A model generated the notes under the pieces. That model was not told the origin of the DNA. It saw only the letters and a program-made list of their open reading frames with translations, and searched no databases. A stretch of 64,000 nt of DNA from a virus: IMG/VR virus record IMGVR_UViG_3300024988_000067, one strand, 5' to 3'. Made by a program: the position numbers and the translations under genes. Positions 8,589 through 39,149 of this stretch are shown here, piece by piece (the stretch's first letter is position 1; each line of letters starts with the position of its first letter).

Positions 8589-9086
8589 ATGTCAGGACCA
8601 GCACCGAAACCGACCGCGCTGAAACTGGTAGAAGGGAACAAAGGAAAGCGCAAGATCAATGCTCAGGAGCCGGATCCGGCATACCTGAATGACCTCACGC
8701 CGCCGGCCTGGCTTCCTCAAGCGGCCGCCGAAGTATGGAACGAAACGGCACCGAAGCTGCGTGCCGCCAAGGTGTTGACCGAGCTTGACGTACACGCTCT
8801 GGCAATGGGCTGCGTAGCCATCGCGCAGTACCGCGCCAGCGTCCGCCGCATCGGCGACGATCTGGTGAAGTCGAAGCATGCCACCAACGACGAAGGCAAG
8901 CCGATCGAGGTTGGCGAGCACGTCAATCCGTGGCTCATCGTGCAGAGCATGACCTACAAGCAGGCCATGGGCATCTTCGCGCAGTTTGGCCTCACGCCGG
9001 CCGCGCGCTCGCGCATCGCCATCAACCCGCAGGACGATTTGTTTGGCCATGGCCAAGCGCCGGCTAGTAAAAACTACTTCTCGTGA
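8589..9086 (+). CDS. terS: Terminase small subunit, P27 family
   Basis: MSGPAPKPTALKLVEGNKGKR...FGLTPAARSR. Confidence 0.9.
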   Translation: MSGPAPKPTALKLVEGNKGKRKINAQEPDPAYLNDLTPPAWLPQAAAEVWNETAPKLRAAKVLTELDVHALAMGCVAIAQYRASVRRIGDDLVKSKHATNDEGKPIEVGEHVNPWLIVQSMTYKQAMGIFAQFGLTPAARSRIAINPQDDLFGHGQAPASKNYFS

Positions 9087-10785
9087 TCCAGTCACCCGCT
9101 ACGCGCGGGCTGTAGTCAACGGCAAAATCACCGCCGGACCGCATGTGCGGGATGCCTGCAAGAGGCACCTGGCGGATCTGGAGCAAGCCCCATCGCGGGG
9201 CTTTTTTTTCGACCTCGAAAAGGTCGAGCGCGCCATCGGCTTCTACCGCGATGTCCTGCGGCTGAATGGCGGCGAGTACGAAGGCGTCGCCTACGAGCTC
9301 CTGCTGTGGCAGTGCTTCGTCGTCGGCAGTGTGTTCGGCTGGGTCGATGCCGACGGCTACCGGCGCTTCCGCCTGGCCTACGTCGAGACCGCCAAGGGAT
9401 CAGGCAAGTCTCCGTTGGCCGCCGGCGTCGGGCTGTACGGCCTGGTGGCAGACGGCGAGTCCCGCGCCGAGATCTACGCCGCCGCTACGAAAAAAGACCA
9501 GGCCATGATCCTGTTCCGCGATGCCGTCGCCATGCGCGATCAGTCGCCCGAGCTGGCCAAGCGCCTGACCAAAAGCGGTGTCGGCGAAAACGCATGGAAC
9601 CTGGCCTACCACCAGACCGGCAGTTTTTTCCGGCCGATCAGCGCCGACGATGGACAATCCGGCCCGCGCCCGCATATCAGCCTGCTCGACGAAATCCACG
9701 AGCACAAAACCGGTTATGTCGTCGAAATGCTCAAGGCCGGCCAGAAATCGCGGCGCCAGCCGCTGCTATTCGGCATCACCAACAGCGGAACCGACAAGCG
9801 CACCGTCTGCTGGGACTACCACGATTATGGCGCCAAGGTAGCGGCCGGCCAGATAGATCCTGGTGATGACAGCTTCTTCGCCTACATCTGCGCACTCGAC
9901 GAAGGCGACGACCCGTTCAAGGACGAATCCTGCTGGGAAAAGGCCAACCCCAGCCTCAAGCACGGCCTGCCGGGTATCAAGTACCTGCGCGAACAGGTCA
10001 CCCAGGCGCGCGGCATGCCCGGCAAGGAATCCATCGTCCGCCGGCTCAACTTCTGCCAGTGGGTCGAGGCCGAAGCGCCGTGGATAGGCGGGGACATCTG
10101 GTTCGATGCTGCGCCTGAGCTGGAATTCGACGAAGCCAGCCTGTATGGCAGGCGCTGCTGGGGCGGCCTCGACCTCTCCAGCACCCAGGATTTGACCGCC
10201 CTGGTGCTGCTGTTCGAGCCCACCGCAGCCGATCCGCACTGGCGTCTCAAGCCGTGGTTCTGGCTTCCTGGAGACGGCCTGCACGACAAGGCAGACAAAG
10301 ACCGCGTGCCCTATATCGCCTGGCGAGACGCTGGCCACCTGGCCGCGCTGCCGGGCCGGGCCATCGACAAGCTGGCCGTCCTGCATAAGCTCGCGCAGAT
10401 CGCCAGCCTGTACGACGTCCATGAGATCGCCTACGACGAATGGCGCATCGCCGACCTGCTCATGCTCATCCAGCAGGAAGGGCTATCCATGCCGCCGCTG
10501 GCGCCGTTCCGCCAGGGATTCAAAAGCATGGCCCCAGCGGTCGACGAATTCGAGCGCCTGCTGCTCGGTCGCCACATGAAACACGACGGCAACCCGGTCA
10601 TGACCTGGAACGCCGCAAACGCCGTCGTCGTCAGTGACCCGGCGGGTAATCGCAAGATCGCAAAAGAGCGCGCCACCGGCCGCGTCGATGGAATCGTCGC
10701 CGCCGTCATGGCCGCAGGCCGGGCCATGACCAAGGAAGAGCGGCCCGACATCAACCAATTTCTGGAAGACCCCATCAGCGCATGA
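9049..10785 (+). CDS. terL: Terminase large subunit
   Basis: Walker A TAKGSGKS, Walker B LLDEIHE, nuclease GLDLSSTQDLTA and RVDGIVA. Confidence 0.95.
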   Translation: MAKRRLVKTTSRDPVTRYARAVVNGKITAGPHVRDACKRHLADLEQAPSRGFFFDLEKVERAIGFYRDVLRLNGGEYEGVAYELLLWQCFVVGSVFGWVDADGYRRFRLAYVETAKGSGKSPLAAGVGLYGLVADGESRAEIYAAATKKDQAMILFRDAVAMRDQSPELAKRLTKSGVGENAWNLAYHQTGSFFRPISADDGQSGPRPHISLLDEIHEHKTGYVVEMLKAGQKSRRQPLLFGITNSGTDKRTVCWDYHDYGAKVAAGQIDPGDDSFFAYICALDEGDDPFKDESCWEKANPSLKHGLPGIKYLREQVTQARGMPGKESIVRRLNFCQWVEAEAPWIGGDIWFDAAPELEFDEASLYGRRCWGGLDLSSTQDLTALVLLFEPTAADPHWRLKPWFWLPGDGLHDKADKDRVPYIAWRDAGHLAALPGRAIDKLAVLHKLAQIASLYDVHEIAYDEWRIADLLMLIQQEGLSMPPLAPFRQGFKSMAPAVDEFERLLLGRHMKHDGNPVMTWNAANAVVVSDPAGNRKIAKERATGRVDGIVAAVMAAGRAMTKEERPDINQFLEDPISA

Positions 10786-25259: not shown

Positions 25260-25672
25260 TCACCGCGTCCGCGATCATCGCCGCGGCGCGCGAGTGCATC
25301 GGCACGCCGTTCATGCACCAGGGCCGCATTCTCGGCCGCGCGCTCGATTGCGCCGGCGTCGCCGTGCACGCCGCGCGCAGTTGCGGGCAGGACGTGAATG
25401 AGCCCGCCGCCTACGGCCGCCTGCCCAATAACGCCATGCTCGAATGGTGGCTCGACCAGCAGCCATTCCTTGAACGCGCGGCCCAGCCCGCAGCCGGCGA
25501 CCTGCTGTTGATGCGCTTTACCGGCGAGCCGCAGCACCTGGCTGTCTACACCGGGGGGAACATCATCCACGCTTACCAGGCCGTCGGCCGCGTGGTCGAG
25601 CATATCCTCGACGACAAGTGGCGCCGCCGCATCGTGCGTGCCTACCGTTTCAAAGGAATCACAAGTGAGTAG
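25256..25672 (+). CDS. NlpC/P60 tail-associated peptidase
   Basis: GTPFMHQGR...LDCAG...GDLLLM...QHLA...IIHAY. Confidence 0.9.
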   Translation: MITASAIIAAARECIGTPFMHQGRILGRALDCAGVAVHAARSCGQDVNEPAAYGRLPNNAMLEWWLDQQPFLERAAQPAAGDLLLMRFTGEPQHLAVYTGGNIIHAYQAVGRVVEHILDDKWRRRIVRAYRFKGITSE

Positions 25673-28600
25673 CGTAGGGCAGGGCGTCGGCGGCCTCGTT
25701 GGGGGTGTAATCGGGTTCTTCATCGGCGGGCCAACCGGCGCCTATTACGGCGCACAGGCAGGCATGATGATCGGCGGCGCGATCGATCCGCCCAAGGGGC
25801 CGACGATCAATGGCCCTCGGCTCAACGATCTCAGTGTCCAGACCAGCACCTACGGCGCGCCCATCCCGCGCAACTACGGCACCATCGCGCAGACCGGCAA
25901 CGTCTTCTGGCTGCAGGGCGACAAGCTGACCGAAGTCCAGACCGTCACCGAAAGCGGCGGCAAGGGCGGCCCGGTCACCACGACCAAGACCTGGAGCTAC
26001 TACGCCACCTTTGCGGTCGGCCTGTGCCAGGGTCCGATCGATGGCGTGCGGCGCATCTGGATCGGCGGGCAGTTGTGGTACGACGCCGGCAGCGACGACA
26101 TCGCCACCATCATCGCCAGCAACCAGAAATCCGACCTGTTCACGCTCTACCTTGGCACCGACACCCAGACCGCCGATCCCCTGATCCAGGCCGACAAGGG
26201 CGTGGCCAATGTACCAGCCTATCGCGGGCTCGCCTACATTGTGTTCGACGCGCTGCCGCTGGAAAAATACAGCAACAGCCTGATGGGAGCGCAGGTCAAG
26301 GCGGAAATCATCAAGATTGGATCCCGTTCCTATGTGTCGACATCCAAGATAATCAATAATGCGGCATGGCCGCTCAATCAATGGGCCGCAGCGGCAACGC
26401 TCGACACTACCGTGGTGGCCGTTTCCCTGTCATCGAATCTGTGCGCCTATTCGCTGGACGGAAACAACTGGACAACGACATATCTTCCCAGTACGGGAGA
26501 CTGGGCATGTGTCGCATCCAAGCCCGGGCTTTTTGTCGCCGTCCAGCGAAACACAAACCAGACGGCAACCTCGCCCGATGGTATCAGATGGACGGCGGGT
26601 ACTACGCTTCCTGGATTGCCGCTTGATGCGCGCAAACTGATCTGGACCGGATCGTTTTTTTGTTTGATTTCGTTTTCAACGACACGCGTATTTATCTCTG
26701 CCGATGGCTTTAACTGGGTTGAGGGCGCGCTTCCGACGACGACATATTCATATTGGATCGATGTTGCCTGGAATGGCAGTACGCTCTGCGCGATCCAGAA
26801 AAATTCCGACGTTGCGGCCGTCAGTACGAATGGATTGACCTGGACCCAGACAACGCTGCCTGTTTCTGATTACTGGACCGCCATTGCAAGCGATGGGGAA
26901 ACCTTTGTCGCGGTCACGGGAACCAAGCTGGATGCAAAGTCCGTGGATGGCGTTACATGGACAGGCGGTTCAACCATGGTGATCACCAATGGAACGGTGT
27001 CTGGCGTTGGAACGGAGTGGAAACTGGCCTTCAATGGAAGCGCTTTTATTGTAGCGACAGGATCAAGCACAAAATATCTTATTTCCGAAGACGCCGGTGC
27101 AACGTGGACGATATTCACGGCGCAGCATACCATGTCGAGTTTCCCGGCGATCACCTCGTACAACGGAATATTCTTGTCCGTCATCGTCAACGGCGACGCA
27201 GAATTTATCTACAAGGACATGACATCGCAATCTGCGGTCCTTGGGGATATTGTCCAGACGGAATGCCTGACCAGCAATATTCTTACCGCCGGCGACCTCG
27301 ACGTCACCGAACTCACGGACACCGTACGCGGTTATCGCATCAGCCAGCTTGGCGCGATCCGCGGGGCGCTCGACCCGCTACGTGCTGCGTTCCCGTTCGA
27401 TGTGGTGCAGCATGGCTACCAGATAAAGTTTGTGCGCCGTGGCGGTGCCAGCGTGGCAAGCATTCCAACATCGTCTCTCGATGCCCGCGCGGCTGGCGCG
27501 GAGCCTGGCGTTCAGGTCACCGATGCGCGCGAAATGGATTTGATGCTGCCGCGCAAGGTGTCGGTGAACTATGTCGACGTCACGCGCGAATACGAAACCA
27601 ACCAGCAGTCCTATGAGCGCATCAACACCGATGCCATAGGCGAGCGCGCAGTCGAGATGCCCATCGTGTTCAGCGCCGCAGAGGCCGCGCAGATAGCCGA
27701 GATGCTCACCTATCTCTACTGGATGGAACGCCACGACGTCGCCTTCGTGCTGCCGCCGGAATATGACAACCTTGAGCCGGCTGACGTGATCACCCTCACC
27801 GGTACCGATGCCACCTGGGAACTGCGCCTGCTCTCCACCAACACGCTGCCAGACGGCCGCATCGAGTCTCGGGCCAAATACAACAAGGCCGCAATCTACA
27901 CCCCAGTCGCGCGAGGCGAGGAAGGCCAGTCCACGGGTGGACTTTTAACGCTGGCCGGACCGTGCGTCTATAGTCTGCTCGACATTCCGCTGATGCGCGA
28001 CGACGACGACACCGCCGGCTTTCCGGTCGCCATGGCCGGCTACCTCAGCGGCTGGCCAGGCGGCATCCTCTATCGCAGCGACGACAGCGGTCAGACCTGG
28101 ACCGACCTGCGCGCATTCGCGCCCGGCGCGGTGATCGGCTACGCCACCACCAGCCTCGCGGCTCACGGCGGAACCGTCTATGACTTCGCGTCCACGCTCG
28201 CGGTAATACTGCATTCCGGAACGCTGTCGAGCGTGACCGAAGCGCAGCTGTTCGCCGGGCAGAACTGGTTCGCCTACGGCGCCGACGGGCGCTGGGAGAT
28301 CATCGCCGCGCGCACTGCCACGCTGCAGGGAGACGGCAGCTACGTACTGCAGGATTTTCTTCGCGGCCAGCACGGAACCGAGTGGGCTACCGGCCTGCAT
28401 GCAGTCAATGACACGCTGGTCCTGCTGTCCGCCACCGCGCTGTCGTTAATCAGTGTCAACGCCAGCAGCATTGGCAGCGCCAGGACCTACCGCGCCATCA
28501 CCACCGGCAAGTCGCTCGACAGCGACACCGACCTGTCGTTCACCTATACCGGCGTCAACCTCGAATGCCTGAGCCCAGTGGCGCTCACCGGAAACCGCCA

Positions 28601-28901
28601 TCCGAGCACCAATGATTGGACGCTGACCTGGACCCGCCGCAGCCGCTATGCCGATTGGCGCGACTATATCGACGCGCCGCTGGGCGAGACCAGCGAATCC
28701 TACGAAATCGACATTTTCAGCAGCGGTACCTACACCACGCTCAAGCGCACGCTCACTGCCAGCAGCCCCACCGCGGCTTACACCAGCGCGCAGCAGGTCA
28801 CCGATTTCGGCAGCAACCAGGCCACGCTCTACGTCAAGGTCTACCAGCTTTCCGCCACCGTCGGCCGCGGCTACGCGCTGACCCAATCGATCACGAGGTA
28901 A
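25665..28901 (+). CDS. Tail tip/host-specificity protein (central fibre) with inserted propeller-like domain
   Basis: YGAPIPRNYGT, PAYRGLAYIVF, LPRKVSVNYVD..REY, LRGQHGTE; GTG start. Confidence 0.85.
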   Translation: MSSVGQGVGGLVGGVIGFFIGGPTGAYYGAQAGMMIGGAIDPPKGPTINGPRLNDLSVQTSTYGAPIPRNYGTIAQTGNVFWLQGDKLTEVQTVTESGGKGGPVTTTKTWSYYATFAVGLCQGPIDGVRRIWIGGQLWYDAGSDDIATIIASNQKSDLFTLYLGTDTQTADPLIQADKGVANVPAYRGLAYIVFDALPLEKYSNSLMGAQVKAEIIKIGSRSYVSTSKIINNAAWPLNQWAAAATLDTTVVAVSLSSNLCAYSLDGNNWTTTYLPSTGDWACVASKPGLFVAVQRNTNQTATSPDGIRWTAGTTLPGLPLDARKLIWTGSFFCLISFSTTRVFISADGFNWVEGALPTTTYSYWIDVAWNGSTLCAIQKNSDVAAVSTNGLTWTQTTLPVSDYWTAIASDGETFVAVTGTKLDAKSVDGVTWTGGSTMVITNGTVSGVGTEWKLAFNGSAFIVATGSSTKYLISEDAGATWTIFTAQHTMSSFPAITSYNGIFLSVIVNGDAEFIYKDMTSQSAVLGDIVQTECLTSNILTAGDLDVTELTDTVRGYRISQLGAIRGALDPLRAAFPFDVVQHGYQIKFVRRGGASVASIPTSSLDARAAGAEPGVQVTDAREMDLMLPRKVSVNYVDVTREYETNQQSYERINTDAIGERAVEMPIVFSAAEAAQIAEMLTYLYWMERHDVAFVLPPEYDNLEPADVITLTGTDATWELRLLSTNTLPDGRIESRAKYNKAAIYTPVARGEEGQSTGGLLTLAGPCVYSLLDIPLMRDDDDTAGFPVAMAGYLSGWPGGILYRSDDSGQTWTDLRAFAPGAVIGYATTSLAAHGGTVYDFASTLAVILHSGTLSSVTEAQLFAGQNWFAYGADGRWEIIAARTATLQGDGSYVLQDFLRGQHGTEWATGLHAVNDTLVLLSATALSLISVNASSIGSARTYRAITTGKSLDSDTDLSFTYTGVNLECLSPVALTGNRHPSTNDWTLTWTRRSRYADWRDYIDAPLGETSESYEIDIFSSGTYTTLKRTLTASSPTAAYTSAQQVTDFGSNQATLYVKVYQLSATVGRGYALTQSITR

Positions 28902-31455: not shown

Positions 31456-32478
31456 TTATGCGGCGATCCGGTCGAGCGGGCTGATCGCACCGGCGGCGCC
31501 GCGTTTGACGACGTGGGTATAGATCATGGTGGTAGAAACGTCAGAGTGACCGAGCAGTTCCTGTACGGTGCGGATGTCGCTACCTGTTTCGAGCAGATGC
31601 GTGGCGAAGCTGTGGCGGAGGGTATGGCAGCTTGCAGGCTTATGGATGCCGGCCGCGATTACGGCGGCGCGCATGGCGCGCTGGATGCCTTTTTCATGGA
31701 TGTGGTGGCGGCGCACGACGCCGGTGCGTGGATCGGTGCTGTAGTCGGCCGCGGCGAATACGTATTGCCATGCCCATTCCTTCGGCGCGTTCGGATATTT
31801 CTTCCACAGCGCATGCGGTAGTTCGACGTCGACCATGCCGCGCGCGAGGTCGATGTCGTGCATCTTGCGGCGGACGGCGAGCTGATCGCGCAGCGGCTGC
31901 ACCAGGCTGGCAGGTAGCGGGACGACGCGGTCCTTGTCGCCCTTGCCGCCGCGCACCAGGATGATGTTCGAGTCGAAGTCGATGTCCTTGACGCGCAGCC
32001 GCATGGCTTCCATGAGGCGCATGCCGGTTCCGTAGAGCAGCCTGATGATCAGCCCGCTCGTGCCCTTGGTATGGGCAAGCACTGCAGCCACCTCGGACTG
32101 GCTCAATACGACAGGAAGCCGGGCCGGTTTCTTGGCGCGCGTGATGTTGTCGAGCCATGGCAGGTCGATTCCGAGCACATGCTTGTATAGGAAAAGCAGC
32201 GCTGCGAGCGCCTGATTTTGCGTGCTGGCAGAAACGTCACGCTCATTTGCGAGCATCGACAGGAAGGCTTCTATCTCGGGCGCTCCCATGTCGGCAGGGT
32301 GGCGAAGGCCGCTCCAGTGGATGAAGTGCTTGACCCAGCTGATATAGGTGCGCTCAGTGCGCAAGCTGTAGTGCTTGACACGGATCGCCGCGCGCATCTG
32401 GTCTAGCAGCTTGGGCTTGGCGGACACGGATGCCTTGTCCTGCTGCTGTGTCTCGATATGATCGATAGTTTCAGTCAT
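31456..32478 (-). CDS. intI: Integron integrase (not class 1)
   Basis: KHYSLRTERTY, STQNQALAALLFLY, LYGTGMRLME, GKGDKDR, integron-specific insertion LPHALWKKYPNAPKEWAWQYVF...DPRTGVVRRHH, HTLRHSFATHLL, IRTVQELLGHSDVSTTMIYTH all intact. Confidence 0.97.
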   Translation of the reverse strand: MTETIDHIETQQQDKASVSAKPKLLDQMRAAIRVKHYSLRTERTYISWVKHFIHWSGLRHPADMGAPEIEAFLSMLANERDVSASTQNQALAALLFLYKHVLGIDLPWLDNITRAKKPARLPVVLSQSEVAAVLAHTKGTSGLIIRLLYGTGMRLMEAMRLRVKDIDFDSNIILVRGGKGDKDRVVPLPASLVQPLRDQLAVRRKMHDIDLARGMVDVELPHALWKKYPNAPKEWAWQYVFAAADYSTDPRTGVVRRHHIHEKGIQRAMRAAVIAAGIHKPASCHTLRHSFATHLLETGSDIRTVQELLGHSDVSTTMIYTHVVKRGAAGAISPLDRIAA

Positions 32479-32520
32479 GGCGCTGGCTCCATGGTTGTCA
32501 TTATCAGGTTATAAGACAGG

Positions 32521-32569
32521 TTGATAGATTCGCGGACATCAGGGTGTCGTAGAATTTAAGTTAGCGGTC
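32521..32569 (+). other. attI site; crossover G/TT at 32560/32561
   Basis: gtcgtagaatttaaGTTAGCG just upstream of, and divergent from, intI; the core is mirrored by R'' of attC1. Confidence 0.8.
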
Positions 32570-33305
32570 ACAGGCTGCACGTCCTGCATTTGTTGGCTGA
32601 AAACCCAAACAGGTCGCCAGTCAACTCAGTGCCGCGTGGTATCTCGCCGCGCTCAAAAACATCCCGCAGTTCCGCCAGCGAGGCGGGCCAAGTGTCGCGG
32701 CTCGGGCTTCTGAATGTGTGCCCTATCGCCTGCTCCTGTTCCACCGCGTCCTGGTAAATCTCCGGGTGCTCTTTCCACAACATCCACCATTCCGGTAGCG
32801 TCTGGAAAAAACACCTAGCACAGTCCGTTCTTTCTGGTATCTGCACATCCCGATCCATCAAATACCCAAGCACATCACCCAAACCCCAACCCCAATCCCT
32901 GAAAGGGAAGCGAACTTCGCAGTTCTCATAAATCCCGCCCTCGCGGCCTTCCTCATCTGCCCGCAGCCCGATATACAAAACCACCTTGTTTCCCTGCTCG
33001 GCCTGGCGGTTTATCCACTCCTGGCAAGTTTCAATTTTCAAAACCCTAGTGCAAAACCGCTTCTGCCAATTCGGCAGGCATTTTTCCCGTTCGCACAAAC
33101 CCTTAAAATCTACCTCTGCGGTCAGCCGCGTCAGCCGCTTCCCGATCAGGCATTCCAGCCTATCCCAGTGCTCCAGCATCACCGGCAATTCATCGCCGGT
33201 GGGTGTGCACAAAAACACATAGTCCTGCGGCTCAATTTCGGCCAAGCGTAGCGCCAGCGCCGTGGAGTCTTTGCCGCCTGATAAACCAACTACGTGTAGT
33301 TCCAT
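32568..33305 (-). CDS. Cassette 1: PAPS-reductase-family (PP-loop) protein with Cys motifs
   Basis: VVGLSGGKDS, RFCTRVLKI, YIGLRADEEGR, RTDCARCFFQ; RBS GAGGA before MELHVV. Confidence 0.85.
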   Translation of the reverse strand: MELHVVGLSGGKDSTALALRLAEIEPQDYVFLCTPTGDELPVMLEHWDRLECLIGKRLTRLTAEVDFKGLCEREKCLPNWQKRFCTRVLKIETCQEWINRQAEQGNKVVLYIGLRADEEGREGGIYENCEVRFPFRDWGWGLGDVLGYLMDRDVQIPERTDCARCFFQTLPEWWMLWKEHPEIYQDAVEQEQAIGHTFRSPSRDTWPASLAELRDVFERGEIPRGTELTGDLFGFSANKCRTCSL

Positions 33306-33320
33306 GTCATCCTCAAAGAC

Positions 33321-33381
33321 CGCTAACACGGCGGTCAACAGCGACCGCGCGAAGCGCGGCGCGTTACCTTAGTCGTTGGCC
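33321..33381 (+). other. attC1 (61 bp)
   Basis: R'' (gac)CGCTAAC, L'' GGT(C)AAC pairs with L' GTTACC, R' GTTGGCC. Confidence 0.9.
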
Positions 33382-33412
33382 GCCACCTTTGCGCGGTGGC
33401 GGGTTCCTACTC

Positions 33413-33595
33413 TTATGCCGTTTCGAGTGCGCTCTCGTTCCACCAGCTTTCCACGGCGCGGCCGTCGGCGGCTTTGTAGCGCAGCAGGTAGCTGTTCCCA
33501 CCTACCGCGTATTCCGCTCTGGCGATAATGCTGCCCGTTTCACCGCTGGCCGAAATCTTCACGGTCTGGTTCATGCTGAAGGTAAATCCGTTCAT
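33413..33595 (-). CDS. Cassette 2: small phage-type protein (60 aa)
   Basis: ORF track; fills the cassette. Confidence 0.7.
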   Translation of the reverse strand: MNGFTFSMNQTVKISASGETGSIIARAEYAVGGNSYLLRYKAADGRAVESWWNESALETA

Positions 33596-33639
33596 TTGCT
33601 GCCCCTGTTCAAAATGCCGTGCCTTCGTTTGGGCGGCAC

Positions 33640-33703
33640 GGCCAACCCGTTAATCAAGCGGGACCGGCGCTAAAGCGCCGGCCCCTTATTGCTGTCGTTG
33701 GGC
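33640..33703 (+). other. attC2 (64 bp)
   Basis: GGCCAAC, AAT(C)AAG/CTTATT, loop gcgctaaagcgc, GTTGGGC. Confidence 0.9.
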
Positions 33704-33912
33704 ACCTCATCATTCAGCTTTGCCAGCAGCTCCGGGTGAACAAACAGCGTGTTGCCGCTTCGGTACATTGCTGGCCTGTCGATCCGGTGCTTAACCACCA
33801 GCCAGTTGCGGCGGCGCTTCTTTATCGGGTTCCGCTCGATGCGCCACACAGTCCGCACTTCGCGGGCCATCGGTGCGCTCACAACGGTCAATCCGTAAAT
33901 CGTTCGGTTCAT
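33670..33912 (-). CDS. Cassette 3: hypothetical protein (MNRTIYG...), stop lies in attC2
   Basis: RBS GGAGAGG; ends VPNDSNKGPAL*. Confidence 0.7.
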   Translation of the reverse strand: MNRTIYGLTVVSAPMAREVRTVWRIERNPIKKRRRNWLVVKHRIDRPAMYRSGNTLFVHPELLAKLNDEVPNDSNKGPAL

Positions 33913-33932
33913 GGTTTCCTCTCCGGGCCAGT

Positions 33933-34019
33933 GCCCAACAATCCGGTCGAGCCGAGGCCCGCCAGCGTCTTTAATCCTTGCCGTGTTCCGTAAGGCCCGG
34001 CTCACCGCAAGCGTTCGGC
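33933..34019 (+). other. attC3 (87 bp)
   Basis: GCCCAAC, GGT(C)GAGC/GCTCACC, GTTCGGC. Confidence 0.9.
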
Positions 34020-34273
34020 GTCAGCTTCACGAATCCTCGGGCGACCATGTACGGGTCGCGCTCTGGGTGATACCGCCGCGCTTCAATGTTCTTCGCCGGC
34101 TTCAGGCTCAACATCCGCCGCCAGTATTTTCCGCAGGCCAGCGCCCGCTCGTGGTTCGCGGCCGCCACGTAAACCGAGCTGCCGCACTGCTTGCCCTTGC
34201 GGTCTATCGGGTACACCTCCCACTGCAATCGTTCGGGGTTCGCGCCCCACTTTCTCGGGTCGTCGTAGCTCAC
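33971..34273 (-). CDS. Cassette 4, ORF b (GTG start, 100 aa), stop lies in attC3
   Basis: GTGA overlap with ORF a; ends TPNACGEPGLTEHGKD*. Confidence 0.65.
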   Translation of the reverse strand: MSYDDPRKWGANPERLQWEVYPIDRKGKQCGSSVYVAAANHERALACGKYWRRMLSLKPAKNIEARRYHPERDPYMVARGFVKLTPNACGEPGLTEHGKD

Positions 34274-34488
34274 AGGTCTTTCTCCATCACTCGGCACGGC
34301 CAGTGATGGCCGCAGTTTGCACAGGCGGCTGTGTCCAGCCGGGTTGTTTTCAGCGCGGCCGGCGATCCGTTGGCCATCAGCCAGTGGTAGGCGTGGCGTC
34401 CGCAGCGCGGGCACCGGCGCTCAATCTTGGCCGGCAGCCGCCGAACCCGTCGCTCCAGAGGGACGCCCTCCATGCCGCTTCGCGTCAT
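34270..34488 (-). CDS. Cassette 4, ORF a: CxxC...CxxC zinc-ribbon protein, start inside attC4
   Basis: CPRC...CANC; RBS GGGGAGA and ATG lie within attC4. Confidence 0.6.
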   Translation of the reverse strand: MTRSGMEGVPLERRVRRLPAKIERRCPRCGRHAYHWLMANGSPAALKTTRLDTAACANCGHHWPCRVMEKDL

Positions 34489-34518
34489 TCCGGTCTCCCC
34501 TGATCTAGTGCGTTAGGC
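34440..34518 (+). other. attC4 (79 bp)
   Basis: GCCGAAC ... GTTAGGC; L boxes imperfect. Confidence 0.75.
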
Positions 34519-34803
34519 ATCGTCATGCTCTTGTTCACGCATCGCCATATCAATCGCGTCCCGCAGGCTGTGCAGGTTCGCGGTCACGCAATGGGTCGGA
34601 AGTTGCACGTTGCCCACAGGGTTGTCCGGGTCGCTCAACCAGTCCAGCCGTGCCGCATCGGCACGCAGTCTTTTGTTCTCGCGCTCCAGTTCGCGCAGCT
34701 TGTTCGCCGCCTGCCTCATCGCCTCTGCCTTTACTGGCGTGGTCGCCCTATTGGCTTCGCGGTCCAGGTAGCCCGCATATCGTTGTGCCATGCTCATCTT
34801 CAT
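34513..34803 (-). CDS. Cassette 5: phage-type coiled-coil protein (DAARLDWL motif)
   Basis: Stop TAA is formed by the cassette core TTA. Confidence 0.75.
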   Translation of the reverse strand: MKMSMAQRYAGYLDREANRATTPVKAEAMRQAANKLRELERENKRLRADAARLDWLSDPDNPVGNVQLPTHCVTANLHSLRDAIDMAMREQEHDDA

Positions 34804-34810
34804 CCTCTGC

Positions 34811-34871
34811 GCCTAACCCGGCGCTCAAGCGGGACCGCGCTAAAGCGCGGCCCCTTAGCTATGCGTTGGGC
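34811..34871 (+). other. attC5 (61 bp)
   Basis: GCCTAAC, GCT(C)AAG/CTTAGC, loop gcgctaaagcgc, GTTGGGC. Confidence 0.92.
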
Positions 34872-35116
34872 CACTCTGCAACCGTGGTCACGTCTTTCGA
34901 TGCGCCGCACCTCTTGCAAAGGTAGCCGGTGGTTGTCCACTTCAGTCCGTCGCCGTCCGGGTCAAGGTCGAGCGATCCGCTTGTGATTGACCATCGGTGC
35001 AGCCCTAGCGCACAAAGCAGTGGTGTGTATCCAATTTTTGCGGCCAGCGTTTGCAGCCCAACCCGGCAGTCGAGCGGAGGCTCGGCAGCGGCTTTGTGGT
35101 CTTTGCTATCGTTCAT
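34859..35116 (-). CDS. Cassette 6: Cys/His small protein (85 aa), start in attC6 and stop in attC5
   Basis: MNDSKDHKAAAEPPLDCRVG...LCALGLHRW...CKRCG...WPNA*. Confidence 0.7.
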   Translation of the reverse strand: MNDSKDHKAAAEPPLDCRVGLQTLAAKIGYTPLLCALGLHRWSITSGSLDLDPDGDGLKWTTTGYLCKRCGASKDVTTVAEWPNA

Positions 35117-35145
35117 TCTCGCCCTCGCTAACTTTTGCGTTGGGC
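35056..35145 (+). other. attC6 (90 bp)
   Basis: GCCCAAC, AGT(C)GAGC/GCTAACT, GTTGGGC; near-identical to attC7. Confidence 0.88.
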
Positions 35146-35357
35146 ACCTTGCATTTAGGAATCTCGGTTGCCATTGCGCGGCCCTCGTATGTGTCGCGCC
35201 GCCACCACCAGTATTCCGCGCCATCAAATCCGCAATGCACGCAGCATCCGTCATCGTCCCATTCGTGGCCGTTGTTCAGGGATCGCTTAGTCCGTTGCCC
35301 AACCCGGCAGTCGAGCGGAGGCTCGGCAGCGGCTTTGTGGTCTTTGCTATTTTCCAT
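35106..35357 (-). CDS. Cassette 7: zinc-ribbon small protein, start in attC7 and stop in attC6
   Basis: GHEW....CCVHCG; ends VPNAKVSEGENER*. Confidence 0.7.
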   Translation of the reverse strand: MENSKDHKAAAEPPLDCRVGQRTKRSLNNGHEWDDDGCCVHCGFDGAEYWWWRRDTYEGRAMATEIPKCKVPNAKVSEGENER

Positions 35358-35386
35358 TCTCGCCCTCGCTCACTTTTGCGTTGGGC
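35297..35386 (+). other. attC7 (90 bp)
   Basis: GCCCAAC, AGT(C)GAGC/GCTCACT, GTTGGGC. Confidence 0.9.
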
Positions 35387-35580
35387 ACCGGGTCATATTG
35401 ATACTCAAACCCATCGCACTTGACCCCTTCGTCGCCTCGCATCATTTCCATAGTCAGGCCACACGCGCCCGTAATGATCTCGTGCGGGTAATCCGGTATG
35501 AAGTGCGTGCAGTTCTGGCATATGCGGTCGCAGTTACACAAACCGGGGAAACACTTTTCGCAAAACGCAAACGTAACCAT
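35347..35580 (-). CDS. Cassette 8: Cys-rich small protein, stop lies in attC7
   Basis: CEKC...CNC..ICQNCTH...GAC...KC; ends VPNAKVSEGENGK*; start uncertain. Confidence 0.65.
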   Translation of the reverse strand: MVTFAFCEKCFPGLCNCDRICQNCTHFIPDYPHEIITGACGLTMEMMRGDEGVKCDGFEYQYDPVPNAKVSEGENGK

Positions 35581-35586
35581 TTCAGT

Positions 35587-35648
35587 GCCCAACAAGTTAA
35601 TCGAGCGGGACCGTCGCAAGCGCCGGCCCCTCATTGCTGGCGTTCTGC
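35587..35648 (+). other. attC8 (62 bp)
   Basis: GCCCAAC, AAT(C)GAG/CTCATT, GTTCTGC. Confidence 0.9.
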
Positions 35649-35932
35649 GGAATTTCCGCGCTGTCATGCGGTAGCTTCCCAACTTGTCGCAAATAGCCGA
35701 TATAGTTTTCGTCCGCCACTAATGAGACGCACATCAGTTCATATGGTCCTTTGTACGCCGTGCGCGGCACCTCGCCGGGCGCGGACTCCGGTTTTTCAAG
35801 GCACTTGAATCCGATGCTGAAAACAAACCCTGGAATCATCGGCAGCGCGTCGGCGCGAATCTTCAGTTCGCCAATCACCTTGTCATTTAGGAAACTCTCC
35901 AGAACCGGCACCGTTATAAATTCATCTTTCAT
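35597..35932 (-). CDS. Cassette 9: hypothetical protein (111 aa), stop lies in attC8
   Basis: RBS AAGGA; ends PQNASNEGPALATVPLD*. Confidence 0.75.
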   Translation of the reverse strand: MKDEFITVPVLESFLNDKVIGELKIRADALPMIPGFVFSIGFKCLEKPESAPGEVPRTAYKGPYELMCVSLVADENYIGYLRQVGKLPHDSAEIPQNASNEGPALATVPLD

Positions 35933-35965
35933 TTTTTTGTCCTTTCTTCGTAGTTACCAAATTCC

Positions 35966-36028
35966 GCAGAACACAACGCTCGTGTGGGACCGCCGCTAAA
36001 GCGGCGTCCCCACAGCTAAGCGTTGGGC
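35966..36028 (+). other. attC9 (63 bp)
   Basis: GCAGAAC, GCT(C)GTG/CACAGC, loop gctaaagc, GTTGGGC. Confidence 0.9.
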
Positions 36029-36231
36029 ACCAGGCCATGCTGCGCAAACAGTGCAACGTCCTCGGCGTCCGCAAACTTTGTTCCGCCGCCTTGCGAGTAC
36101 AGGCTGCGGACGGCTGGTGTCGCATGCCCTTCCTCGCGCAGCAATACGGCCACGGCGCAGTAGTAGCCGCGCGACCACTCGCGGCTTGCGATGTCGTCGA
36201 TCACCTTGTTAATCCGGTCGGCAAATGCCAT
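36016..36231 (-). CDS. Cassette 10: hypothetical protein (MAFADR...), stop lies in attC9
   Basis: RBS AGGAG; ends VPNA*. Confidence 0.7.
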   Translation of the reverse strand: MAFADRINKVIDDIASREWSRGYYCAVAVLLREEGHATPAVRSLYSQGGGTKFADAEDVALFAQHGLVPNA

Positions 36232-36248
36232 GTTCTGCTCCTGTTCGT

Positions 36249-36308
36249 GCCCAACCATTTATTCAACTCGGACGCGCTAAAGCGCGCCGGTTATGTCAAG
36301 CGTTAGGC
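36249..36308 (+). other. attC10 (60 bp)
   Basis: GCCCAAC ... loop gcgctaaagcgc ... GTTAGGC; L boxes imperfect. Confidence 0.82.
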
Positions 36309-36596
36309 ACACAAACGCAGTGCATCAATGGCATTGATTGCGGCGGCCTTATCTGAGTCGGGTGCCGGTGTGGAGCGAATAGCGATCTCCATTGCGTCCA
36401 GCTCCTCTTTTGTGCTGGCTCCGATCAGTCCGGCCAGTGCATTACGCAGCCGCTCAATCTTTTGCTCTGCCTCGCGCATAGGATGTTTCTCGCAATTCTT
36501 TATGTGTTCAGTCAACAGTTCATGCTTTGCGGCTGGTGTTCCGTCTGGGTATTGGTGCCCGCAATAAACACAGGTTACAACATTGTTTTCACTCAT
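36303..36596 (-). CDS. Cassette 11: zinc-finger-like (CVYC...HIKNC..H) phage-type protein
   Basis: Stop TAA is formed by the core TTA. Confidence 0.75.
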   Translation of the reverse strand: MSENNVVTCVYCGHQYPDGTPAAKHELLTEHIKNCEKHPMREAEQKIERLRNALAGLIGASTKEELDAMEIAIRSTPAPDSDKAAAINAIDALRLCA

Positions 36597-36616
36597 AATT
36601 CAATTCTCCCAAAAGT

Positions 36617-36692
36617 GCCTAACAAGGCAAATTAACTGCGACCGTTCCGGTCGCTGCGCTCCCTACACGTCGCGTTATTTGCAACGTTAGCC
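36617..36692 (+). other. attC11 (76 bp)
   Basis: GCCTAAC, AAAT(T)AAC/GTTATTT, GTTAGCC. Confidence 0.88.
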
Positions 36693-36878
36693 GCCACGTG
36701 TGCCGCCCAATTCGCGCAGCTTGTCGCATACCCATTGTGGGTCTGTCACGCTACCGCCAGGCATCACTTCGATTGCCCGGTTTAGTGCGGCCTTCCACGC
36801 AGCGCGCGCAACCCATTCCTGTGCTTCTGGGTCGTATTTCATCCCTTCGCGTTCAAACCATTGTTCAAATTCGTCCAC
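36687..36878 (-). CDS. Cassette 12: small phage-type protein (GTG start)
   Basis: FEQWF...VARAAWKAA; RBS GGAGAG lies inside attC12. Confidence 0.7.
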   Translation of the reverse strand: MDEFEQWFEREGMKYDPEAQEWVARAAWKAALNRAIEVMPGGSVTDPQWVCDKLRELGGTRGG

Positions 36879-36965
36879 GTCTAACTCTCCATTCCAGGCG
36901 AGGCCGTGGAGCAGCCTTCACCCATAGTTGTGTTCTTTCGGCCCGCCTAAATTTCAGCGTTGGCC
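36879..36965 (+). other. attC12 (87 bp), last attC of the array
   Basis: GTCTAAC, ATT(C)CAGG/CCTAAAT, GTTGGCC. Confidence 0.78.
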
Positions 36966-36969
36966 GTCA

Positions 36970-37611
36970 CTACGCCGCCACCGGGAACGTGCGTTGCACT
37001 TGGATGTGCCGATCCTTCACGCGCTCATCCGTCATCACGGCTCGCGGGCCGCGCCGGTAGAACTGAAGCGCCAAGCTCAGCGCCGCGCCCCACTGCGCGC
37101 CCGAGAGACCGATGGCGCGGATGCGTGCGTTGGCAAAGCCCGCTGTCTCAATCTCTTCGCGGTCTCGCTCCCACGCTTCGCGGTCGTCCCACGTTTCCGG
37201 TTCGTACTTCCGCTCCAACAGGTGCCGCAGAATCTAGGCCGCCGTGATGTGAATGCACTGCTCGTAGCCGGGGCCAAAGCCTCCCATTTCAATGCTCCAG
37301 CAGGTTCCGCCGTCGTCCCACCGCTTCAGCCAGTCCGCAGCGTCAGCGCCGTAGGTGTCGATCTCGTGCTTTTCCTTGTCCTCGGCTTCGGTGCGATAGA
37401 ACACCTTCTGGCCGTCGAGAAACAGGCCGCGCACCGTGAAGCCGATTCCCTTGCCGTAGAAGCGCGCCGTCATGCCCTCTGTCGGTACCACGGGAGAGGG
37501 CGCAGGAACGTAAAAGCTCCAGCCGTCAGCCCGCTCGATGCTCCAGCCTTTGCCCTCGTCGCGCACTTTGGCGACTGTGGTTTCTTCAAACTGCTCGTCA
37601 TTCGGGTACAT
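36970..37611 (-). pseudogene. Hypothetical gene interrupted by one in-frame TAG (37234-37236)
   Basis: ...CIHITAA*ILRHLLERKYE... continues in the same frame to 36970. Confidence 0.7.
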
Positions 37612-37636
37612 GGTTTTCCTTTCGTTGTAAGTTGCC

Positions 37637-37852
37637 GTGCCGGCCAACCATCCAAACAGGGGGCCGAAATGCCCCTCTGCAAATCCAGCGCCAGCAGAAA
37701 TCCGGGAGGCCCGCGAAGCTGCTGGGATGTCGCAAACGGCGGCTGCATCCCTCATCCACTGCACCCTTCGCGGGTGGCAGGAGTGGGAGGCAGGCAACCG
37801 CAAAATGCACCCGGCGTTCTGGGAACTGTTCCGCATCAAATCAGCCCTCTAA
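37637..37852 (+). CDS. Small XRE-family HTH protein
   Basis: ANHPNR...EIREAREAAGMSQTAAASLI...WQEWEAGNRKMHPAFWELF. Confidence 0.75.
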   Translation: MPANHPNRGPKCPSANPAPAEIREAREAAGMSQTAAASLIHCTLRGWQEWEAGNRKMHPAFWELFRIKSAL

Positions 37853-38561: not shown

Positions 38562-39149
38562 CTAAATTCGACCACCCACAAGCTGCAATTCCAGCGCCAT
38601 ATCCGGAGCGCAATCAGGATTGCGCGGCCGGACAACGGCTGCCATCTTGTCGACGTTGAGGTCGCCCAAGAAACTCGCGATCTGTTCGGCGGTGACGCGC
38701 GGCCTTGCGATCATGTCCTCGAAGCGAAGGTCGAGGATGTGCTTGACGCCTGCCGTTCGCAGCGAGCGAACAGCTAATATCACATCTTCCTTGAAGGAAC
38801 GGGCGAGGGTCGCACGATATTCCCGATTGACTGGAAGCCCCATCATTTCACGAAGGAATTTCGCGTGTGACTTGGCCTGCTCCATTGGATCGCGCCTGCA
38901 CCATATCGCCTTCGTACTGATTCCATTGGGAAGTGTGTATGTCTGCGGATCAAGCAGTTTGAGTGCATGGCCGCTGATTCCGTGCAGACGTTCAGCATCA
39001 ATGAATTCTGGTTTCACGATATCGGATGCCTCGAATGCTGGATATTCGCCTGTTACGGGCATGCCGCCTGCTTCCAGCATTTGCATGACAAGCGATGATC
39101 CACAGCGCCCGAAACCACATACGAGGGTGATGGATTCGTGTGTGTTCAT
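38562..39149 (-). CDS. Sulfotransferase-family (P-loop) protein
   Basis: VCGFGRCGSSLVMQML (5'-PSB-like), WCRRDP (3'-PB-like), LRFEDM. Confidence 0.7.
   Translation of the reverse strand: MNTHESITLVCGFGRCGSSLVMQMLEAGGMPVTGEYPAFEASDIVKPEFIDAERLHGISGHALKLLDPQTYTLPNGISTKAIWCRRDPMEQAKSHAKFLREMMGLPVNREYRATLARSFKEDVILAVRSLRTAGVKHILDLRFEDMIARPRVTAEQIASFLGDLNVDKMAAVVRPRNPDCAPDMALELQLVGGRI

Follow-up and report, generated by a model that had tools for sequence, protein, structure and literature searches.

Class 1 integrons have the layout intI-attI-cassettes. Each of their cassettes is a unit running from TT to G, the attC site, also called the 59-base element, has the order R''-L''...L'-R' with its bulges on the '' side, and the R'' box is complementary to the first bases of the cassette itself. 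In the 1990s, Hall, Stokes and colleagues reportedly mapped the crossover to the G/TT of the core site, using complementarity. The bases that follow the G/TT crossover in a core site derive from the downstream cassette (PMC3518468). The stretch analysed here, a viral sequence of 64,000 nucleotides (IMG/VR record IMGVR_UViG_3300024988_000067; hereafter, the window), very probably carries a canonical integron array with the same layout, site structure and units: intI, attI and 12 cassettes. A preliminary description, made from the sequence alone, had claimed that each of the 12 R'' boxes mirrors the 5' core of its own cassette—a footprint of circular cassettes that have integrated at G/TT. This footprint is textbook in itself; its value here is practical, in that it gives base-exact cassette boundaries in an undescribed 12-cassette phage integron.

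The window differs from class 1 integrons in several respects: its integron integrase (IntI) shares only 59% identity with IntI1, the array is carried by a phage, the genes in the cassettes run antisense to attC, and the cargo consists of small phage-type genes rather than resistance genes. Sedentary chromosomal integrons of Beta- and Gammaproteobacteria (Luteimonas, Ramlibacter, Hydrogenophilaceae) share the geometry and the pairing rule described below, and one such integron has window cassettes 4 and 8; their genes, however, are mostly sense to attC. Integrons carried by phages are rare, with three complete examples among 10,705 phage genomes (Qi et al. 2023, PMC9892861). As in those cases, a complete integron lies within a temperate-phage genome; the window array differs in being long (12 cassettes) and in belonging to an IMG/VR contig family, in which IntI proteins are 66–88% identical.

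An integron array of twelve cassettes

The array begins with an integron-type tyrosine recombinase gene and an attI site adjoining its 5' end, followed by discrete units that each end in an imperfect palindrome, bounded by an RYYYAAC-like box (left) and a GTTRRRY box (right):

31456..32478, minus strand: intI, integron integrase of 340 amino acids (TIGR02249, 476 bits against a cut-off of 265, full length)
32479..32560, plus strand: attI, ending in ...GAATTTAAG, with the crossover G at 32560; AT-richer
32561..33375, plus strand: cassette 1; start TTAGCGGTC pairs with R'' GACCGCTAAC (33318-33327); attC1 at 33321-33381
33376..33697, plus strand: cassette 2; start TTGGCCG pairs with R'' CGGCCAAC; attC2 at 33640-33703
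33698..34013, plus strand: cassette 3; start TTGGGCAC pairs with R'' GTGCCCAAC; attC3 at 33933-34019
34014..34512, plus strand: cassette 4; start TTCGGCG pairs with R'' CGCCGAAC; attC4 at 34440-34518
34513..34865, plus strand: cassette 5; start TTAGGC pairs with R'' GCCTAAC; attC5 at 34811-34871
34866..35139, plus strand: cassette 6; start TTGGGC pairs with R'' GCCCAAC; attC6 at 35056-35145, a 90-bp twin of attC7
35140..35380, plus strand: cassette 7, 241 bp; start TTGGGCA pairs with R'' TGCCCAAC; attC7 at 35297-35386
35381..35642, plus strand: cassette 8; start TTGGGCAC pairs with R'' GTGCCCAAC; attC8 at 35587-35648
35643..36022, plus strand: cassette 9; start TTCTGCGGAATTT pairs with R'' AAATTCCGCAGAAC (14 bp); attC9 at 35966-36028
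36023..36302, plus strand: cassette 10; start TTGGGCAC pairs with R'' GTGCCCAAC; attC10 at 36249-36308
36303..36686, plus strand: cassette 11; start TTAGGCAC pairs with R'' GTGCCTAAC; attC11 at 36617-36692
36687..36959, plus strand: cassette 12; start TTAGCC pairs with R'' GTCTAAC (one mismatch); attC12 at 36879-36965, the last site of the array

The GTT core of attI (GAATTTAAG|TT) lies at the first cassette. A five-way alignment of attI (the window plus L001-L004) contains a conserved block, TGTCGnnGAATTTAAGTT, and the likeness stops at the GTT directly after it; BLAST similarity of the attI region to L001 and L002 stops at 32563-32565. The attC sites have R''/R' cores, an L box and extrahelical bases on the '' arm, with a top strand divergent from intI, and the units are bounded by G/TT: cassettes 2, 4, 5 and 8, and the 3|4 junction, break within GTT in other arrays or strains. 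Two features depart from the usual picture. Firstly, some cores (GCCGAAC, GCAGAAC) do not follow strict RYYYAAC. Secondly, in place of promoterless sense genes read from a Pc promoter at the intI/attI end, the called genes all lie on the minus strand. A search for attC past attC12, up to position 38700, found none.

Each R'' box mirrors the 5' core of its own cassette

As a measure of pairing, the length of the uninterrupted complementary run was taken, starting at the invariant GTT/AAC and moving outward. For each cassette start against its own R'', the runs for cassettes 1 to 12 are 10, 8, 9, 8, 7, 7, 8, 9, 14, 9, 9 and 5 bp; the cassette 12 pair matches at six of seven positions, while the other 11 are perfect over 7–14 bp. 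Between R'' and the adjacent, integrated R', the runs for sites 1 to 12 are 3, 5, 3, 3, 3, 7, 8, 3, 3, 3, 5 and 3 bp. The mean run is thus 8.6 bp with the cassette's own core versus 4.1 bp with the adjacent R', bearing out the earlier statement that R'' often matches its neighbour poorly. The mirroring itself was found in 12 of 12 cassettes at the places originally described, one of them with a single mismatch, and the span given for it (32560-36885) runs from the G of the attI GTT to the last C of the twelfth R''.

The cores all conform to GTTRRRY/RYYYAAC, and so cognate matches might arise through low diversity, by chance and without shared history. In favour of this explanation, GTTGGGC(AC) is common to five cassettes, and the cognate start, while it gives the row maximum for all 12 R'' boxes, is the unique maximum for only five, because several cassettes have the common core GTTGGGCAC. 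Dealing the twelve starts at random to the twelve R'' boxes refutes it: in 200,000 permutations the sum averages 54.4 (standard deviation, sd, 7.4) and never exceeds 99, whereas the cognate sum is 103, more than six sd above that mean. In this shuffled control, of the kind proposed in the preliminary description, non-cognate pairs are not equally complementary. In addition, distinctive cores pair with their own partners only (the 10-bp and 14-bp pairs, GTTCGGCG and GTTGGCCG), and the rule was replicated in 22 and 55 further cassettes (see below). Chance is a vanishingly improbable explanation; the pairing is confirmed as real and highly non-random.

Pairing of this kind follows from the way in which cassettes move. 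In a free circular cassette, attC is imperfectly palindromic, and folding of its bottom strand brings the outer arms, R'' (RYYYAAC) and R' (GTTRRRY), together as a pair. R' is cut by IntI between G and TT, so that, after insertion, the G remains at the 3' end of the cassette while TT and the bases following it become the cassette's first bases; the rest of the visible R' is supplied by the next cassette. Since R' is split at G/TT, R'' is complementary to the 5' end of its own cassette rather than to the adjacent R'. Three parts of this scheme are demonstrated by the sequences: the pairing and its statistics, the canonical asymmetry of attC and its position relative to intI and attI, and the GTT boundaries of the same cassettes in other arrays. 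The window IntI is presumably active, with circles as intermediates.

The in silico circularisation and bottom-strand folding proposed earlier gave a concordant result. The mean minimum free energy of bottom-strand attC (DNA parameters) is -22.9 kcal/mol in the circularised form, -18.8 kcal/mol in the integrated form and -19.0 kcal/mol with non-cognate starts. Circularisation thus gains about 4 kcal/mol on average, and the circularised form is the more stable in 10 of 12 sites (Wilcoxon p=0.007), with the biggest gain for cassette 9 (-23.4 to -32.0 kcal/mol).

The rule extends beyond the window. In four related phage arrays (22 cassettes), the mean run is 8.0 bp for cognate versus 4.1 bp for adjacent boxes, a value reached by none of 100,000 permutations; the two failures in these arrays are long gaps, in which an undetected attC is probably hidden. 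In eight cassettes on contigs of metagenome-assembled genomes (MAGs) with an IntI 83–87% identical to that of the window, the figures are 8.25 versus 4.5 bp. In 11 ordinary integrons (55 cassettes), they are 8.6 versus 5.2 bp, and the cognate run is the longer in 45 of the 55. Holding as it does in related phage arrays, MAG contigs and ordinary integrons, the pairing rule is a general property of integrons. The phenomenon is a known one; what is new here is the undescribed integron.

Cassette boundaries in other arrays and strains

The boundaries enabled the same cassettes to be recognised in phage strain variants and in a distantly related second integron, and these copies agree with the earlier claim that the pairing fixes boundaries. 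Cassette 5 recurs in IMG/VR contig L078 at 100% identity; the match opens at the G of GTTAGGC (34512) and closes at the GTT of R' (34865-34867). The identity spans the gene, R'' and both arms of attC5, with differences only in the terminal loop, and both flanks are unrelated; in L079, cassette 5 has the same limits at 79% identity. Cassette 2 is present in L016 at 100% identity from 33374/33375 to 33666, with a different attC upstream.

The second integron (L172 and relatives) is apparently chromosomal. It has an IntI 59% identical to that of the window, a different attI, and dCMP-deaminase and YkuD-domain genes downstream of intI. At positions 2200–3450 of L172, a copy of cassette 4 (97% identity) is joined directly to a copy of cassette 8 (100% over 268 bp), in that order, with the junction ...CTAGTGC-G|TTGGGCACCGGG. 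The first cassette of this integron follows the same pairing rule (GTTGGGCAC / GTGCCCAAC). These shared cassettes are evidence, at the level of sequence, that the phage-borne integron trades cassettes with integrons outside phages. The arrangement of cassettes 4 and 8 is also present in L174, L176, L178 and L180, and with extra cassettes in L179 and L181.

Among strains of the phage, a variant represented by two independent assemblies (L166 and L167) is identical through cassette 3 and attC3 to GCAAGC-GTT (34013-34015), after which a different cassette follows, starting TTAGATGACTCATC. A 3-nt change in a variable region, GTG to TGA at 33983-33985, accompanies the switch of cassette in these assemblies. 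In run X4, another attC end precedes the start of cassette 4. In run X6, a single contig has an attC1-like end followed by G-TTAGCGGTC, the 5' core of cassette 1 itself, as would be expected of a circle or tandem junction. This junction evidence comes from assembled contigs; many short attC-attC joints in X6 and X7 (sides <30 nt) were discounted, being cross-matches from one attC family to another. Exact-pattern scans of Joint Genome Institute (JGI) metagenome contigs for the predicted circle junction of cassette 1, and for its 5' end, returned nothing.

The preserved junctions all break within the invariant GTT, consistent with a G|TT crossover. The proposed footprint of circular integration is thereby supported for cassettes 2, 4, 5 and 8, the 3|4 junction and attI.

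The moves between arrays also bear on a further explanation, namely that the repeats are maintained by selection in the integrated state (for gene loop-out in single-stranded DNA, or for a role in the transcript) and are not inherited halves of a site. Nothing speaks for this directly, beyond the repeats flanking every gene and adjoining the minus-strand start and stop codons. Against it, a cassette keeps its pair when its neighbours change (cassette 5 in L078; cassettes 4 and 8 in L172), the pair is the exact prediction of a split palindromic attC, and ordinary integrons with sense genes show the pairing equally. We consider selection of this kind extremely improbable.

Two further observations concern contigs with window cassettes. 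The viral contigs L015 and L016 have five attCs and an identical cassette 2, with no intI in the record, resembling clusters of attC sites lacking an integron integrase (CALIN-like); they also contain a 38-bp stretch similar to the intI 5' region, and their distal site is an attC2/attC9 hybrid without R'. In record 24 of run X7 (a sediment metagenome; window 32527-33344), intI is diverged, its pieces passing only at the 90% threshold, while cassette 1 together with the last 33 nt of attI differs at just 9 of 818 positions. This hints at a recent transfer of cassette 1 between related phage integrons.

Orientation of the array

The preliminary description went too far in one respect: it held that the pairing also fixes orientation. 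Each start/R'' pair is an inverted repeat flanking a gene body and reads identically on both strands. Mirrored circularisation, with the crossover in the left box, is also stabilising (-17.5 to -20.1 kcal/mol). Because the inverted repeat is mirror-symmetric and the mirrored model also gains stability, R''/5'-core pairing alone does not fix orientation, and annotators should not use it alone to orient an array. In principle, each unit could comprise a minus-strand gene plus its downstream attC, and the crossover would then take place in the left box (AA|C on the plus strand). Besides the symmetry and the stability gain, such a mirror orientation would suit the genes, which are all on the minus strand and many of which end inside the site on their left.

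Orientation is instead set by (i) the position of intI and attI, (ii) the side of the attC bulges, and (iii) the attC that travels with each gene. Firstly, the left end of the array is an attI beside the 5' end of intI, and not an attC. Secondly, in the attC folds it is the 5' arm of the plus strand that has the bulged bases and the 5/6-nt spacers, the canonical polarity. Thirdly, in the four available comparisons (cassettes 2, 4, 5 and 8), the attC to the right of the gene co-travels with it, while the left attC does not. All three stand against the mirror orientation, which we regard as very improbable.

The polarity of the sites was quantified with a covariance model built from six sites (an alignment with a hand-written structure). 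With the full set of 12 attCs, RNAalifold found no more than the R box, as the attC centres do not align; the six-site alignment was therefore used instead. The model detects 12 of 12 attCs on the plus strand, including the six outside the training set; where a reverse match was reported, the plus versus reverse-strand scores are 83.9/25.4, 76.8/16.5, 73.7/22.2, 56.2/11.1 and 28.9/6.4 bits. (The covariance search with filters off misses long attCs, for which results come from the other covariance search.) In a class 1 control, a further likeness to that system emerged: the window-built model recognises the attCs of aac(6')-Ib and aadA16 on the strand that diverges from intI1; in that control, this strand is gene-sense. 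The same geometry was found in 90 of 90 covariance hits at 20 genome loci carrying IntI relatives.

Observations that fit less well

Several observations weigh against a simple account of the array by circular integration at G/TT in the plus-strand orientation. The first concerns attC6 and attC7 (35056-35386), twins of 90 bp each that differ at four bases. Strain variant L170 lacks exactly 241 bp, the length of cassette 7, and its retained site has all four attC7-specific bases; a canonical exchange between attC6 and attC7 at R' would instead keep the attC6 bases. The loss fits homologous recombination within the 54-bp identical left part of the twin sites. It is also compatible with the mirror orientation, for which a left-box crossover would be expected to produce this structure, but which the other comparisons reject. 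As the 241-bp loss keeps the attC7-specific bases, not every rearrangement of the array is a G/TT event.

The second is the presence of an attC3-type site before cassette 4 in two different integrons. Circular integration at G/TT does not predict this adjacency, while a site accompanying the cassette on its left is what the mirror orientation would lead one to expect. Thirdly, attC2 in L016 has an attC9-like half, lacking R', in place of its own right half. Fourthly, the circle-like junction in X6 is represented by a single contig; the 3-nt spacer is different, and the junction could instead be that of a tandem copy. Fifthly, sequence comparison places the crossover no more finely than the invariant GTT triplet. 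Finally, an integron in which every cassette gene runs antisense to attC, as here, is unusual.

Sites of the attC3 type (window 33931-34015) are very abundant in metagenomes, with summed contig depths of ~1,100 in run X1 and ~9,000 in X6. The gene bodies to which they are joined in L002, L172 and a high-depth X1 contig are unrelated.

Antisense cassette genes and a possible shared cassette pool

The cassette genes are co-directional with intI and with the phage integrase gene, and independent gene calls in public assemblies place 13 of 13 array genes on the minus strand. Those of the first five cassettes are as follows:

33305-32568, minus strand: cassette 1 gene, PAPS-reductase family (open reading frame (ORF) 1 matches phrog_424, E 3e-30)
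33595-33413, minus strand: cassette 2 gene (ORF2 matches phrog_8618, E 3e-28)
33912-33670, minus strand: cassette 3 gene
34488-34270 and 34273-33971, minus strand: two overlapping cassette 4 genes
34803-34513, minus strand: cassette 5 gene (ORF5 matches phrog_37882)

The recombination mechanism is independent of gene direction; sense genes are usual for integrons but are not required. In a crude longest-ORF test, the sense frame is the longer in 46 of 58 cassettes of ordinary integrons. In the phage clade, the antisense frame is the longer in 13 of 27 and the sense frame in 5 of 27; in the window, the corresponding figures are 8 and 1 of 12. With codon-usage scoring trained on phage structural genes, the two strands of the cassettes could not be told apart. 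Even the PAPS-reductase gene scores poorly, and cassette codon usage thus differs from that of the phage core.

The phage carrier, the antisense genes and the sharing of cassettes with a distantly related integron are the unusual features of this array. One tentative way of drawing them together, to which we give slightly less than even credence, is that the phage integron may be active in a cassette pool common to bacterial chromosomal integrons of bioreactors and wastewater, as suggested by the occurrence of cassettes 4 and 8 at 97–100% identity beside an IntI of 59% identity. Its antisense-gene cassettes would then be read from the early-left operon of the phage and not from Pc, and the exact pairs, as long as 14 bp, would be a sign that the cassettes have passed through the circular form recently or often.

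The cassette 2 gene is an ordinary phage gene that is packaged here as a cassette, because 52 of 54 viral contigs with members of the phrog_8618 family (33413-33595 in the window; L017-L068) have no attC within 2.5 kb. Homologues of the cassette 11 gene, 77–80% identical, are present in viral contigs L071-L073; attCs antisense to the homologue and beside it were detected in L071 only. A scan of viral contigs with ORF9 found no relative, and an exact-protein look-up of ORF1 returned only the same context. A likeness of ORF4a to L002 was rejected as gene homology, being just an attC-encoded tail.

The carrier genome and its relatives

The carrier is a temperate-phage-like genome. It is a circular record of 38,749 bp that the window reads 1.65 times: positions 1-25251 equal 38750-64000, an exact repeat with 0 mismatches. 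The circle encodes a terminase (8986-10785) and other structural genes related to those of temperate siphoviruses, and a phage-type integrase gene lies directly downstream of intI. A long ORF of 1,087 amino acids is located at 25638-28901, inside the structural-gene block.

The IMG/VR relatives—those of the contig family introduced above—each have their own attC array upstream of intI. The nearest genome IntI proteins, 83–87% identical, come from MAGs labelled Thiobacillus, Sulfuricella, Nevskia and Pseudomonadota, and the public runs that contain the stretch are metagenomes from bioreactors and wastewater. Deposited phages gave no nucleotide match to the integron by megablast, and phage-encoded IntI relatives are at most 48% identical, IntI1 on P1 excepted. 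A search of the window against Rfam gave no match.

Past the last attC, the minus strand at 36970-37839 contains two ORFs split by an in-frame TAG (37234-37236). The N-terminal part of this pair has a homologue (59% amino acid identity) within a cassette of the L002 array, and the pair may be a cassette remnant without its attC.

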